A DNA stretch of 64,000 nt from Planctomycetota bacterium (GTDB taxonomy: Bacteria; Planctomycetota; Brocadiia; SM23-32; JAKLEA01), in assembly GCA_022711755.1 (NCBI GenBank), contig JAKLEA010000001.1, positions 336,743 through 400,742 on the forward strand. Reading direction: 5' to 3'. This document shows positions 59,514-64,000 of the stretch, one piece after another. Below the pieces are notes generated by a model. It was not told the origin of the DNA, made no database searches, and was given only the letters and a program-made list of their open reading frames with translations. The number at the start of each line of letters is the position of its first letter. The stretch's first letter is position 1. Position numbers and translations under genes: made by a program.

Positions 59514-60419
59514 ATGGAAGAGATCAAGGTCGGCATGATCGGTCTGGACACGTCCCACGTCATGGCGTTCGCGGACATACTGAATGACCCGAAACACGCC
59601 TATCACGTCCCCGGCAGCAGAATCGTCGCCGCCTATCCTGGCGGGAGCCGCGACTTCGCCCTGAGCTGGGATCGGATGCCGAAGTTCCGCGATCAACTCG
59701 TCACAAAATACAAACTGAAAATCTGCGATTCGATCCCGGAGTTGGTCGAACAGGTTGACGCCATCCTGCTGGAGAGCGTGGACGGGCGCGTTCATCTTGA
59801 GCAGTTCCGCCGGATCGCCCCTTCCGGAAAGCCGGTCTTCATTGACAAGCCATTCACCGTTGACCTCAAGGAAGCGCTTGAGATCGAGCGCCTCGGCAGC
59901 GAACACGCCTGCCCCTTCTTCAGCGCTTCATCGCTGCGGTTCGATTATAACGTGCAGAAGGCGCGCGAAGATTCCGATCCCGTCATAGGTTGCACGGCGT
60001 ATGGTCCGGCCTCGCTCGAACCGACGCAGAAAGGCATCTTCTGGTACGGAATTCATTCCGCCGAAGTGCTCTTCACTCTCATGGGCGCGGGATGCAAGGC
60101 CGTGACGTGCATCGGCAACAACGACACGGACGTCGTGGTCGGGCGCTGGGAGGATGGGCGAATCGGCGGCATCCGCGGCATACGCAAGGGGCAGGCGGAT
60201 TTCGGCGCGAAACTCTGGCGGGAGAAGAAAATCCAGGATGTCTCCCTCTGCAAGGACCCGCCCTATTATCCCCAGTTGATGAAAGCCGTCATGGGACTCT
60301 TCAGGGAACGCAAACTCCCCTTCGAGACCCGCGAGACACTGGAAATCATCGCATTCCTGGAGGCTGCCAATACAAGCAAGTCAAAAGGCGGCGCGGAAGT
60401 CCCCATCGAATTCGCCTGA
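59514..60419 (+). CDS. Gfo/Idh/MocA-like oxidoreductase
   Basis: The N-terminus has a Rossmann-like segment (IKVGMIGLDTSHVMAF). The family assignment is tentative. Confidence 0.5.
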   Translation: MEEIKVGMIGLDTSHVMAFADILNDPKHAYHVPGSRIVAAYPGGSRDFALSWDRMPKFRDQLVTKYKLKICDSIPELVEQVDAILLESVDGRVHLEQFRRIAPSGKPVFIDKPFTVDLKEALEIERLGSEHACPFFSASSLRFDYNVQKAREDSDPVIGCTAYGPASLEPTQKGIFWYGIHSAEVLFTLMGAGCKAVTCIGNNDTDVVVGRWEDGRIGGIRGIRKGQADFGAKLWREKKIQDVSLCKDPPYYPQLMKAVMGLFRERKLPFETRETLEIIAFLEAANTSKSKGGAEVPIEFA

Positions 60420-60438
60420 CACGTTCGGGAGGCATCGC

Positions 60439-62151
60439 TTGGCGTCGCTCCGTCTTTTTGAAGCGTATCCGAAGCTTGAGGAGAAGCTTCCGCGCGTCCC
60501 GCTTGCCAACCTGCCGACTCCCGTCGAAAGGTTGGCCGCGCTGGGCGACCGCCTCGGCCTGCCCTCGCTTTACATAAAACGCGAGGATCGGATCAATCCA
60601 GTCTACGCCGGTAACAAGGTCAGACCGCTGGAATTCGTTCTCGGCAGCGCCAGGGCCAAGAGCGTGAAGCGAATACTGACCATCGGGCCGATGGGTTCCA
60701 ACAGCGTAGCTTGTACGGCTACACACGCACGTTCCCTCGGCATTGACTGCACAGCCGTCCTCTTTCCACAGCCGCAGGCCTCATACATAACCCATAACCT
60801 CGCGGTTGACGTCGCGGCCCGCGCAGATTTCGCAATTTCCGCCAGCAAGTATTTTGTCCCGCTTACCGCCGCCCGGGCGATGCTGGCAAGACTCGTGAAG
60901 GAAGGACGCCTTCCCTTCTATGTCCCAGCCGGGGCTGGTCTGACCGTCGGTTATGCGGGCCACGTCAACGCGGCGTTTGAATTGAGACGGCAAATTGATG
61001 AAGGCGTCCTCCCGGAGCCTGACTACCTTTTCCTTGCGCTGGGCACATGCGGAACGGCGGCAGGTTTGTCTCTCGGCGTAAGGGCCGCCGGACTCCGCAC
61101 TAAGGTCTTCCCCGTCCGAATCACCGACCTGATTGTCTGCAATGAGCGCATAACAGCAAAATCAGCAAATACCACTGCCAGGCTACTTCACGATCTTGAT
61201 TCCTCATTCCCGCTTATTCAGTTCCGTCCCGCAGAATTGAACGTCCTTCACGACTATGTCGGAAATGGTTATGCGCTGCCGACGCCCGCATCCAGAGAGG
61301 CCACCCGCTTGCTACTTGAAACCGAGGGGATCGAACTTGACAGCAGTTACACGTCAAAATCCTTTTCCGCGATGCTGGATTTGAAGGACAAGCTGGATTT
61401 GGCGCATAAGACCGTGCTATTCTGGTATTCGCGTCCGGCGCTGAAATTTGATGTTCCCTCCGATCTGCGGGAACGACTGCCGCGCGCATGCCGCAAATAC
61501 GTGGTTCTCAATCAGGATGAAACCTCCGCAGGACGGAAGGAGGCCGGAAACGTTCCCCCGTCCAGCGACAGCAAGGTCCAGCGAATGTCCAACAAAGAAG
61601 ACGGCGGTCTGCTGAAGAAGGGCGACATCGCCCCCGACTTCGAGGTCGTCACTGTCAAGGGCGAAACCGTGTCATTGTCCCGCTTCAAAGGCGGCAAATA
61701 CGTCTGCCTCGTATTCCTGCGCTACGTCGGTTGCCCAATCTGCCAGATGACGATGGTCCACCATAAGCGCGAATACGATCGTCTGGCAGCCGCCGGAGCG
61801 GACGTCATCATCTTCGCGCAAAGCCCGAACGAGAAACTGCGCAAGACCGACGCAAAAAAAGACTTTCCCTTCCACCTGGTCGGCGACCCGGAACGGGAAG
61901 TCTACGGCCTTTATGGAGTCGGACGCGGCGGACTCAAGCACATCATCCTTGGCTCCCACGTCGCAGTAAAAGCCACTCTGAAAGGTTACATGCACGGGGC
62001 GCTGGGCGGCGACGAATTCCAGCTTCCCGCCGATTTCATCGTCGGCCCTGACGGGCGCATCGCCATGGCCCATTATGGTCGCCACGCCGGCGACAACATG
62101 GCCCCGGCCCAACTCGCCGAACTGATCACAAAGAACCTGAAGTCAAAGTAG
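60439..62151 (+). CDS. Fusion protein: N-terminal PLP-dependent ACC deaminase / D-cysteine desulfhydrase family domain plus a C-terminal peroxiredoxin/redoxin-like domain
   Basis: The lysine motif AGNKVRPLEF resembles GNKxRKLE. The redoxin part reads KYVCLVFLRYVGCPICQ. Confidence 0.7.
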   Translation: MASLRLFEAYPKLEEKLPRVPLANLPTPVERLAALGDRLGLPSLYIKREDRINPVYAGNKVRPLEFVLGSARAKSVKRILTIGPMGSNSVACTATHARSLGIDCTAVLFPQPQASYITHNLAVDVAARADFAISASKYFVPLTAARAMLARLVKEGRLPFYVPAGAGLTVGYAGHVNAAFELRRQIDEGVLPEPDYLFLALGTCGTAAGLSLGVRAAGLRTKVFPVRITDLIVCNERITAKSANTTARLLHDLDSSFPLIQFRPAELNVLHDYVGNGYALPTPASREATRLLLETEGIELDSSYTSKSFSAMLDLKDKLDLAHKTVLFWYSRPALKFDVPSDLRERLPRACRKYVVLNQDETSAGRKEAGNVPPSSDSKVQRMSNKEDGGLLKKGDIAPDFEVVTVKGETVSLSRFKGGKYVCLVFLRYVGCPICQMTMVHHKREYDRLAAAGADVIIFAQSPNEKLRKTDAKKDFPFHLVGDPEREVYGLYGVGRGGLKHIILGSHVAVKATLKGYMHGALGGDEFQLPADFIVGPDGRIAMAHYGRHAGDNMAPAQLAELITKNLKSK

Positions 62152-62515: not shown

Positions 62516-62630
62516 GCCGAAAGCAACCTCGTTCACATCATCCTTCTCCCTGTAGGAGAAGGTGGCGTTCGCCTTGGCGAATGACAGATGAGGGGAATGA
62601 TGTCCATCTCGCCCGTCTCGGAGACGATCT

Positions 62631-64000
62631 GTGCAATCAAAAGAACTTTCCGAAGCGCTTTCAACGATTATCCCCCCCGACCGCGTTCTCATTGACGACG
62701 CCACACTGACGGAATACTCGTCGGATATGACCGAGACGCCCCCCGCGCGCCCGGACGCAGTCGTCAAGGCGCATACCCGGGACGAAATCGTCTCCCTGGT
62801 AAGGTTCGCCAACGAGAATCGCGTCCCCCTCATCCCTGCCGTCGCAAGGACCAACCTGGGCGGGCTTTGCCTGCCGGATCATGGTGGAGTCATCGTTGAC
62901 CTTACGGAGATGCGTCGGATTATCGAAGTTAATGAAAATGAGATGTACGCCCTCATCGAACCGGGTGTCACGTTCGGTGACATCAGCGCCTACCTGAAGG
63001 AGAAACACCCCTCGATCCGCTTCGGTTATCCTCTTTCTCCTCCTTATACTTCGGTTTGCGCAAACTGCATCTGCGACGGGCTGGCCAATCTCTCCATGCG
63101 CCACGGCGCAATGTCGGAGTGGGTGAACGGGATGGAAGTCGTCCTGCCGAGCGGCGAAGTCATCGTCACCGGCGCAGGGGCAGTCTCCCCCGTCTGGTTC
63201 GGCCATGCTCCAATCCCCGACCTGGATGGTCTGATCTTCAGTTGGCAGGGGACCACCGGCATAGTCACTAAAATGGCCGTGCAGCTCTGGCCCAACCTGC
63301 CGCTGCGCAAACGCATGTTCCTGCTCGTCGGGACGCACATTGACGCCTTCAACCTCATGCGCCGCTTCTGCCGCACGATGATGTTTGACGACATAGGCGG
63401 CATGACGTGGCCGACCGGCAAGATGCTCTTCGGCATCAAGCGCCCCGCCGGAAAGGACCCCACGGAACCCGGAGCGTTCGTCTACCTCGACTTCTCAGGA
63501 AATATCCCCGAAGAAATTGACTGCAAGCTGAAGATGGTCCGGACGGTCCTCGCCCGGGCGCGGGCGGAAGGCGTGAAATCCGAAGACCCGATCATGCTCG
63601 AGGATATCGTCAAACTCAACGAGCGTTTCGCCAAGTTCGCCGAGTTCCCGACTACCCTCGATTTTCTGCTGGATCACGGCGGCGGCGGGCTGACATGGGT
63701 GGGAACCTACGGCCCCACGGCGGCGTGGGACGAGGCCGCCAACCGCGCCGAACAGATCATGGCAAAACACGGCTTCGCCCCTACAATGGTGTTGAGACCC
63801 ATGAAGGGCGGCCACTTCGGCGTCTTCCGCGTCATCACCATCTTCGACAAGAAGGACGCCGCAGAGACCGAGCGCGTCAGGCAGTGCAACCGCGAGCTTG
63901 GCCGCATGGCCCTTGACCTCGGATTCGTCATCTACAAGACGCCAGCGTGGGCCGTGGAGATGATGCTTGAGCGCATGAATCCTGAAACTCATGCACTGAT
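62631..64000 (+). CDS. FAD-linked oxidase (FAD_binding_4/PCMH type), 3'-truncated at the window edge. The start codon is GTG.
   Basis: I translated the frame by hand: VQSKELSEALSTIIPPDRVLIDDATLTEYSSDMTETPPARPDAVVKAHTRDEIVSLVRFANENRVPLIPAVARTNLGG... continues with no stop to the window end. GGAGA lies 6 nt upstream of the GTG. It is missing from the ORF track because it has no stop. Confidence 0.7.
   Translation, partial: MQSKELSEALSTIIPPDRVLIDDATLTEYSSDMTETPPARPDAVVKAHTRDEIVSLVRFANENRVPLIPAVARTNLGGLCLPDHGGVIVDLTEMRRIIEVNENEMYALIEPGVTFGDISAYLKEKHPSIRFGYPLSPPYTSVCANCICDGLANLSMRHGAMSEWVNGMEVVLPSGEVIVTGAGAVSPVWFGHAPIPDLDGLIFSWQGTTGIVTKMAVQLWPNLPLRKRMFLLVGTHIDAFNLMRRFCRTMMFDDIGGMTWPTGKMLFGIKRPAGKDPTEPGAFVYLDFSGNIPEEIDCKLKMVRTVLARARAEGVKSEDPIMLEDIVKLNERFAKFAEFPTTLDFLLDHGGGGLTWVGTYGPTAAWDEAANRAEQIMAKHGFAPTMVLRPMKGGHFGVFRVITIFDKKDAAETERVRQCNRELGRMALDLGFVIYKTPAWAVEMMLERMNPETHAL

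Follow-up and report, generated by a model that had tools for sequence, protein, structure and literature searches.

Why should an enzyme dependent on pyridoxal 5'-phosphate (PLP) carry a peroxiredoxin-fold domain at its C-terminus, and which chemistry could the two domains share? This question is raised by a block of four co-directional genes on the + strand, which lies between positions 59514 and 64000 of a 64,000-nucleotide stretch of DNA (in the following, the window) from a Candidatus Brocadiia metagenome-assembled genome (MAG). The second gene of this block is an open reading frame (ORF) of 570 aa in which a PLP domain and a redoxin domain are joined; it is preceded by a Gfo/Idh/MocA-like oxidoreductase gene and followed by genes for an SCP2-like small protein and for a flavoprotein resembling vanillyl-alcohol oxidase (VAO) and p-cresol methylhydroxylase (PCMH), behind which the next gene is convergent according to the public assembly annotation. 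An earlier examination of the window (here called the sequence-only reading) had pointed out the ORF as an unusual fusion of an ACC-deaminase-family PLP enzyme with a peroxiredoxin domain, for which it suggested a role as thiol peroxidase. Here we report that the PLP-redoxin fusion is real but rare, and that its two domains appear from sequence comparison to have been fused three separate times and in both orders. All parts belong to known superfamilies; it is the combination rather than the kind of system that is new.

Both halves of the ORF are recognised by Pfam well over the gathering thresholds (GA), with PALP covering aa 23-328 (110 bits, GA 35) and AhpC-TSA covering aa 395-542 (75.2 bits, GA 26). 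Two further redoxin families, Redoxin (41 bits) and AhpC-TSA_2 (PF13911; 30.7 bits, GA 27), likewise exceed their GA on the C-terminus, so that three Pfam families agree with the redoxin fold proposed earlier, and the AGNKVRPLEF and GCPIC motifs are present as described (Table 1). The N-terminus matches the family consensus LFxxYPxL..LPTPVE, the protein contains neither a signal peptide nor a hydrophobic segment, and 60439-62151 encodes one cytoplasmic polypeptide. In an AlphaFold2 (AF2) model (pTM 0.65) this polypeptide forms two confident domains connected by a disordered linker (aa 358-388). Homologues of either domain are mostly stand-alone, as would be expected if an assembly, frameshift or gene-calling artefact had joined two genes, but to such an artefact we give practically no credence. 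Indeed, the identical protein (P0001) was met on five contigs, among which are ENA ERZ27257456 and, from a Candidatus Brocadiia MAG, NCBI GCA_035389845.1, and this recurrence of the ORF in independent assemblies shows the domain boundary to be free of assembly error; moreover, same-order fusions are found in unrelated MAGs, reverse-order ones exist as well, and the succession of redoxin, SCP2-like gene and flavoprotein gene is conserved in close relatives.

The rarity of the fusion became apparent in two-domain searches that covered 5.8 billion clusters, the 150 best matches among 1.84 billion representatives and, out of 587 genome loci, the best 80. The only other proteins with both domains in these searches were P0283 (551 aa) and a gene of locus L066 (from a Desulfobacterales MAG), which have the same domain order as the window protein, and P0002, P0003 and P0005, in which the order is reversed and the redoxin comes first. 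In the close relatives L086 and L115 the order of redoxin C-terminus, SCP2-like gene and flavoprotein gene is kept; their contigs end inside the redoxin, and both probably share the window's type of fusion. A literature search found no report of a PLP-redoxin fusion, of its gene cluster or of the SCP2-flavoprotein pair, in keeping with the earlier description of the pathway as uncharacterised.

The origin of the fusions was examined with unbootstrapped neighbour-joining trees, one per domain, backed by pairwise identities. In both trees the three fusion types (the window's PLP-redoxin protein; the PLP-redoxin proteins of L066 and P0283; the redoxin-PLP proteins P0002, P0003 and P0005) occupy three separate places, each beside stand-alone proteins, and each domain resembles a stand-alone protein more than it does its counterparts in the other types. 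For example, the redoxin domain of the window is 51% identical to the stand-alone P0121, the highest value reached by stand-alone homologues, and 37% and 34% identical to its counterparts in L066 and P0283; similarly, the PLP domain is 45% identical to the stand-alone P0004 and 35% and 34% identical to L066 and P0283, while the PLP domain of L066 shares 49% identity with the stand-alone L045. Two fusion events are the minimum that the opposite domain orders by themselves demand, and three agree with the data. In every fusion the partner of the redoxin is a PLP domain and never an oxidase. The sequence-only reading had named a separation into two ORFs in related genomes as a point against the fusion; for the family as a whole this applies in part, PLP homologues being mostly stand-alone and, in the best 80 of 587 loci, without a redoxin up to 10 kb away, and it is offset by the three apparently independent fusions.

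The surroundings of the other fusions vary. The fusion gene of L066 follows an amino-acid permease gene and has no oxidase neighbour; P0283 is monocistronic, likewise without an oxidase neighbour and with a glycyl-radical enzyme in the region; the P0002 gene comes immediately behind one for a GMC oxidoreductase. Around P0121 and P0124, which are the nearest stand-alone redoxins, there are neither PLP nor SCP2 nor FAD genes. The P0283 gene (L121/L122:8001-9656, GCA_018829445.1), from a probable anaerobe, lies between two HU genes, with a sulfatase gene and genes for a glycyl-radical enzyme and its activase at a distance of ~1-5 kb. In the reverse-order fusions (L003:2047-3816, L004:70-1857 and L005:47-1813, encoding P0002, P0003 and P0005, respectively) a twin-arginine-like motif, SRR[AT]FL, stands between the domains and is followed by a Gly/Ala-rich hydrophobic stretch; together these may represent a relic twin-arginine translocation (Tat) signal or a membrane anchor. 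An internal start that would split these ORFs was considered and rejected, an in-frame GTG being present in one of the three only.

By sequence the PLP domain falls into a clade of the D-Cys desulfhydrase/ACC deaminase superfamily that is uncharacterised. Its best sequence matches in the PDB are the D-Cys desulfhydrases 7ysk and 4d8t (109-114 bits), followed by ACC-deaminase homologues, and its best NCBIfam matches are XcbE (156.8 bits) and CuyA (155.6 bits; cutoffs 450), followed by TIGR01275 (150 bits, cutoff 289), while the DcyD equivalogs score 98-106 bits against cutoffs of 429-610. K60, S87-N88 and Y304-T305 align with K51, S78-N79 and Y287-T288 of 4d8t. The AGNKVRPLEF motif corresponds to GGNKxRKLE of DcyD (with K51) and to GGNKTRKLEY of the ACC deaminase 1rqx; its lysine and Y304 are invariant in 31 family members, and the AF2 confidence (pLDDT) is mostly above 88 across the domain. 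A hallmark of ACC deaminases is a Glu after the catalytic Tyr (Tyr294-Glu295 in Pseudomonas ACCD). At this position SSYTSK of the window aligns with PVYTGK of DcyD 4d8t and of PH0054 (1j0a), versus PVYEGK of 1rqx. We regard a true ACC deaminase, which the shared superfamily and weak matches to TIGR01274 and PRK14045 might suggest, as highly improbable and rejected this identity, since Thr305 rather than Glu follows the catalytic Tyr and TIGR01274 scores 82.2 bits against a cutoff of 392. The domain is best described as desulfhydrase-like (Tyr-Thr) and not ACC-deaminase-like (Tyr-Glu), so that the superfamily assignment of the sequence-only reading stands and its ACC-deaminase label does not.

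The closest characterised relatives of the domain, DcyD, CuyA and XcbE, all cleave C-S bonds. With DcyD (EC 4.4.1.15; 4D8T, 7YSK) it has in common the fold-type II fold, the lysine motif, the Ser-Asn pair and the Tyr-Thr pair, but it is only ~30% identical, has Gly where DcyD has Gln before Ser-Asn, and belongs to a clade that adds a conserved C-terminal extension (LFWxTYNS...LPxxFxxYF), the redoxin fusion and partly exported members. CuyA (L-cysteate sulfo-lyase) and XcbE (a coenzyme M enzyme), the top NCBIfam matches over the whole domain, perform C-S cleaving beta-elimination; sulfonate or coenzyme M genes, by contrast, are absent near the window fusion. The clade is large (9,514 matches at E<=1e-3 among the 1.84 billion representatives), its members are ~365 aa long, and they are distributed over many bacterial and archaeal phyla. 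N-terminal signal or lipoprotein signals occur in many members (e.g. P0291, P0293, P0308, P0330 and P0354), although PLP enzymes do not usually have them; two PLP domains stand in tandem in P0279, and P0281 and P0285 are alpha/beta-hydrolase-PLP fusions.

The redoxin domain (core pLDDT >90) departs from canonical peroxiredoxins (Prx) in its active site. RYVGCPIC aligns with PAAFSPVC of the bacterioferritin comigratory protein (BCP) of A. pernix (2cx3) and with PKAMTPGC of E. coli BCP, so that R-x3-C-P-I-C stands where peroxiredoxins have P-x3-T/S-x2-C. While the fold is that of BCP/PrxQ and Cys435, the second Cys of CPIC, stands at the peroxidatic position, Cys432 replaces the Thr/Ser, Arg428 replaces the Pro, and the conserved catalytic Arg appears to be missing, Pro or another non-Arg residue standing at its position; the Leu-Pro-x-x-Phe of the LPxxF strand is invariant in the family, with no conserved Arg before it in a loop whose alignment to BCP is gapped. 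The R, G, C, P and C of the motif are nearly invariant in the redoxin subfamily. The best NCBIfam match is the SelL-related redox protein NF040769 (91.8 bits, cutoff 120). SelL proteins carry a UxxU motif at the TxxC position. The domain shares with the Prx-like 2/SelL/PRXL2 group a BCP-like fold, CxxC in place of TxxC and an insertion after the Prx core, but it stays under the NF040769 cutoff, is fused to a PLP domain, and no selenocysteine was seen in it.

A characterised protein of this group is human PRXL2B (prostaglandin F synthase), a CxxC reductase with a BCP-like fold and the arrangement Arg40..Cys44, in which both cysteines act as reductant and which reduces a lipid endoperoxide via R-x3-C-x2-C (PMC12938796). 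The redoxin of the window has the same spacing, its Arg standing at -4 from the first Cys. Because the Prx active-site residues are replaced and a PRXL2B-like Arg...CxxC is present, the earlier label of thiol peroxidase loses its support and a canonical peroxiredoxin was rejected. The domain is instead of the Prx-like2/SelL/PRXL2 CxxC type, for which dithiol/disulfide oxidoreductase is the better description.

The two genes downstream of the fusion form a unit of their own. The flavoprotein gene, whose GTG start and course beyond the window had been predicted earlier, has the same start in the gene calls of two public assemblies; residues 1-456 of 478 lie inside the window, the gene ends 67 nt past it, and the full gene is available as L001:12193-13629. 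The protein (AF2 pLDDT 93) consists of FAD_binding_4 and FAD-oxidase_C domains and is closest in fold to PCMH (1dii, TM 0.88), followed by VAO and eugenol oxidase (EUGO; 0.85-0.87) and D-lactate dehydrogenase (D-LDH; 0.82). VAO/PCMH 4-phenol oxidoreductases are defined by a Tyr-Tyr-Arg phenolate-binding triad and an Asp base. The flavoprotein shares with p-cresol methylhydroxylase, vanillyl-alcohol and eugenol oxidases the fold, both FAD domains and the C-terminal Tyr of the phenolate-binding pair (Tyr435), and its His395 aligns with the His pair of VAO-type enzymes. It is, however, only ~22% identical to them, has Lys436 for the Arg, lacks the first Tyr (NLGGL vs FGYG), and has Leu135 as the equivalent of Asp170 (mapped via the T181D site of 9fge). 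These residues mark a distinct subfamily and not a bona fide 4-phenol oxidase. An alkyl-dihydroxyacetone-phosphate synthase (ether-lipid) identity was rejected because it scores only 56-58 bits, while VAO/PCMH enzymes reach 160-166 bits. Relatives of the flavoprotein are numerous (1,359 protein clusters at E<=1e-10) and stem from many phyla.

The SCP2-like protein of the window falls under the Pfam GA of 21.3, while 10 of 11 orthologues match SCP2 (best E 7.4e-8), in line with the SCP2-like label of the sequence-only reading, whose position for the gene, 7 nt behind the fusion, is confirmed; a profile search of the PDB found no match at E <0.7. It resembles the lipid-binding proteins of the SCP2/UbiJ/UbiT type in the SCP2 signature across its orthologues and in being small, stand-alone and paired with an oxidoreductase, but the match is very divergent and the window copy stays below GA. 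PCMH likewise has a small partner encoded next to it, which is a cytochrome c, whereas the partner in the window is SCP2-like.

A metagenome scan with the flavoprotein as bait, together with the contexts of protein homologues, yielded 24 distinct orthologous loci. An SCP2-like gene stands directly upstream of the flavoprotein gene in 16 of the 17 loci with upstream sequence at E<=1e-5, and in all 17 at E<=1e-3. An overlap of 4 nt between the two genes is frequent, and the paired proteins measure ~115-130 aa (SCP2-like) and ~478 aa (flavoprotein) in L040, L086-L105 and L115-L120. Planctomycetota and Myxococcota have the pair, as do a MAG labelled Cytophagia and many metagenome contigs without classification; SCP2-like protein and flavoprotein are a near-obligate pair across phyla. 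A PLP gene of the present family adjoins the pair in 7 of 18 informative loci and Amidohydro_2 in three flavoprotein loci, while a redoxin stands beside it only in the window's subclade (L001, L086 and L115), the flavoproteins of L086 and L115 being 71% and 85% identical to that of the window. Co-conservation within the block holds for the SCP2-flavoprotein pair and in part for the PLP gene; it does not extend to the redoxin outside this subclade, nor to the Gfo/Idh/MocA-like gene, for which no orthologue was found beside the module in any related locus examined. In Myxococcota (L117-L119) the pair lies behind a SAM hydrolase-type gene (SAM_HAT) and in front of a DTW-domain gene, with one strand common to all of them, and L116, L117 and L120 have DUF362 genes at most a few kb away.

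Viewed from the PLP gene, 84 loci could be compared, namely 80 from the genome scan (the best 80 of 587), L001 and L003-L005. A GMC oxidoreductase gene lies directly upstream in 17 of the 84 (e.g. L035, L036, L037, L038, L041, L044, L047, L062, L025, L017 and L003), often together with Amidohydro_2; further neighbours are Amidohydro_2 (7 loci, among them Poribacteria, Phycisphaerae and Cytophagia-like ones), an amino-acid permease (6) and DUF2085 (6). In other loci a VAO-like flavoprotein takes the place of the GMC enzyme, and a gene of the PLP clade was found beside such a flavoprotein in 8 loci. These neighbour counts indicate that the PLP clade pairs repeatedly with flavin dehydrogenases of two unrelated folds, and the exchange of GMC and VAO-like flavoenzymes looks like non-orthologous displacement in one pathway. 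The redoxin is a rarer add-on to this arrangement, joined only by fusion.

What, then, could the fused domains do together? We tentatively favour a model, with a probability of roughly 0.38, in which a sulfur lyase is tethered to a dithiol reductase. The PLP domain would catalyse alpha,beta-elimination on a beta-substituted amino acid, external or derived from turnover and probably sulfur-bearing, from which it would release the leaving group along with ammonia and a 2-oxo acid. The CxxC domain would serve as a dithiol/disulfide oxidoreductase acting on the same chemistry, either by reducing a disulfide form of the substrate (cystine-like or a mixed disulfide) to the thiol that the lyase can use, or by resolving a persulfide or sulfenate leaving group; it would presumably be re-reduced by a cellular thioredoxin-type system and would not be an H2O2 peroxidase. 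The SCP2-like protein would probably be a small ligand-holding partner of the flavoprotein, which would dehydrogenate a hydrophobic substrate, the PLP enzyme of this family being recruited as a neighbouring step. A direct role in thiol/disulfide chemistry is favoured over peroxide scavenging because the redoxin appears to lack the Prx catalytic residues, because its fusion partner is always a PLP domain, and because two of the three fusion types are without an oxidase neighbour in apparent anaerobes. The C-S cleavage common to the closest characterised PLP relatives and the conservation of the module also speak for the model.

Several observations weigh against this model. The PLP clade is without a characterised enzyme, and the NCBIfam scores lie far under the curated cutoffs, at about one third of them, so the sulfur substrate is guessed from analogy. 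The neighbourhoods of the PLP family show no sulfur theme, and no stand-alone redoxin was found up to 10 kb away from any of 80 stand-alone PLP genes (the best 80 of 587 loci); most PLP family members therefore work without a redoxin. The PLP domains contain no fusion-specific Cys, and the AF2 model of the window protein shows no defined docking of PLP and redoxin domains. The separate origin of the fusions is read from unbootstrapped trees and pairwise identities, the contigs of L086 and L115 lack their upstream halves, and the hydrophobic segment of the reverse-order fusions, if membrane-spanning, might put the two domains on opposite sides of a membrane.

There are other readings, of which two are unlikely and about equally so. 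The redoxin could be, much as the sequence-only reading had it, an antioxidant reductase of H2O2 or, like PRXL2B, of an organic or lipid (endo)peroxide, and could protect the PLP enzyme from peroxide made by a flavin oxidase or process this peroxide. Its Prx fold (AhpC-TSA), the R-x3-C-x2-C that it shares with a protein reducing a lipid endoperoxide (PMC12938796), the VAO-type flavoprotein beside the window fusion, the GMC oxidoreductase in front of P0002 and the lipids hinted at by the SCP2 neighbour all fit such a role; yet Pro, Thr and Arg of the Prx site are all missing by alignment (the Arg loop being gapped), P0283 and L066 are without an oxidase neighbour in apparently anaerobic genomes, the redoxin has been fused thrice to a PLP domain and never to a flavoprotein, and a redoxin is absent from most loci in which a PLP gene and an oxidase stand together. 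Alternatively, the PLP enzyme might be a deaminating dehydratase of a beta-hydroxy (possibly D-configured) amino acid in a pathway without sulfur, in which the flavoprotein or the Gfo/Idh/MocA-like enzyme oxidises an amino alcohol or amino sugar to the substrate, Amidohydro_2 contributes a hydrolase step in some lineages and the redoxin is a lineage-specific accessory. Enzymes of the DcyD family (EC 4.4.1.15) have as substrates D-amino acids that carry a leaving group at the beta position. The flavin dehydrogenases beside the PLP clade, the recurrence of Amidohydro_2 and the Gfo/Idh/MocA-like gene at the head of the window block would all be accounted for in this way, but conserved sugar-acid or lipid catabolic genes are absent around the module, the Gfo/Idh/MocA-like gene is unique to the window, the window block is without Amidohydro_2, and three independent CxxC fusions are left unexplained.

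Less probable still is a purely regulatory role, in which the CxxC domain would act as a redox switch of the PLP domain by thiol-disulfide exchange and take no part in catalysis. Tethered thioredoxin-like regulatory domains are present in other enzymes, and the flexible linker would permit intramolecular contact, but there is no obvious target disulfide for such a switch because no Cys of the PLP domain is conserved in the family or common to the three fusion types. To return to the pairing of sulfur lyase and dithiol reductase, it can be extended, as a rather improbable possibility, to a new catabolic route in which a bifunctional C-S lyase/dithiol reductase and an SCP2-chaperoned VAO-like flavoprotein would degrade a hydrophobic or lipid-linked sulfur amino acid. 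Candidate substrates, put forward with the same low confidence, would be S-lipidated or S-alkylated cysteine or its disulfide, and it is no less speculative that related lineages would swap the flavoprotein step of this route between VAO-like and GMC enzymes.

Repeated joining of two domains, here apparently thrice and in either order, counts among the better signs of shared chemistry that sequence alone can give. It suggests that a desulfhydrase-type PLP lyase and a CxxC Prx-like2 redoxin work together in a way not described before, and neither of their subfamilies has a characterised bacterial member. Its neighbourhood moreover exposes two conserved, unstudied modules, the pair of SCP2-like protein and VAO/PCMH-like flavoprotein and a triad made up of PLP enzyme, Amidohydro_2 and a flavoprotein of interchangeable fold. 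Fusion and modules are concrete targets for enzymology; they do not overturn current understanding.

Table 1. Features of the four-gene block, with positions in the window
Feature	Position	Strand	Remarks
Gfo/Idh/MocA-like NAD(P) oxidoreductase	59514..60419	+	301 aa; first gene of the block; Pfam GFO_IDH_MocA 26.9 bits, GA 24
Fusion ORF: PLP domain, linker, CxxC redoxin	60439..62151	+	570 aa; TTG start; GGGAGG at 60427-60432, 6 nt upstream
Fold-type II PLP domain	60439..61503	+	aa 1-355; PALP 110 bits
AGNKVRPLEF motif	60607..60636	+	aa 57-66; Lys60 (60616-60618), predicted PLP Schiff-base lysine
SYTSK with Tyr304-Thr305, desulfhydrase-type pair	61345..61359	+	from alignment to solved relatives
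Hydrophilic linker, predicted disordered	61510..61602	+	aa 358-388; AF2 pLDDT <50
Peroxiredoxin-fold CxxC redoxin, Prx-like2/SelL/PRXL2 type	61606..62148	+	aa 390-570; AhpC-TSA 75 bits
GCPIC, Cys432-x-x-Cys435 redox motif	61729..61743	+	aa 431-435; Arg428 at -4
SCP2-like small protein	62159..62515	+	118 aa; 7 nt after the fusion stop; Pfam SCP2 19.5 bits
VAO/PCMH-like flavoprotein	62631..64000	+	GTG start; GGAG at 62620-62623, 7 nt upstream; FAD_binding_4 99.5 bits

The Gfo/Idh/MocA-like gene, which precedes the fusion as the sequence-only reading had stated, has a Rossmann domain over GA; in a protein of this short length the Pfam scan gave no match to a C-terminal domain, and matches in the PDB are weak (E>=0.002). 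No promoter-like or terminator-like sites were found in the intergenic gaps of the block, and Rfam and tRNA scans returned a single tRNA-Pro distant from it and nothing else. The 115-nt spacer between the SCP2-like and flavoprotein genes contains a perfect 8-bp hairpin at 62542-62562, CCTTCTCC-CTGTA-GGAGAAGG, and a second hairpin of 7 bp at about 62565-62582. A regulatory RNA or terminator in this spacer was considered and rejected, the fold z being -1.0, a T-run being absent and L115 and L086, with their shorter spacers, having no such hairpins. Upstream of the block, a DUF2079 membrane-protein gene on the - strand (55455-57647) has an ambiguous start, its product measuring 730 aa versus 648 aa in two public annotations. 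Finally, a tyrosine recombinase gene (Phage_integrase / Phage_int_SAM_1), probably XerC/D-like, is located 5 kb upstream of the block at 53507-54394, likewise on the - strand.

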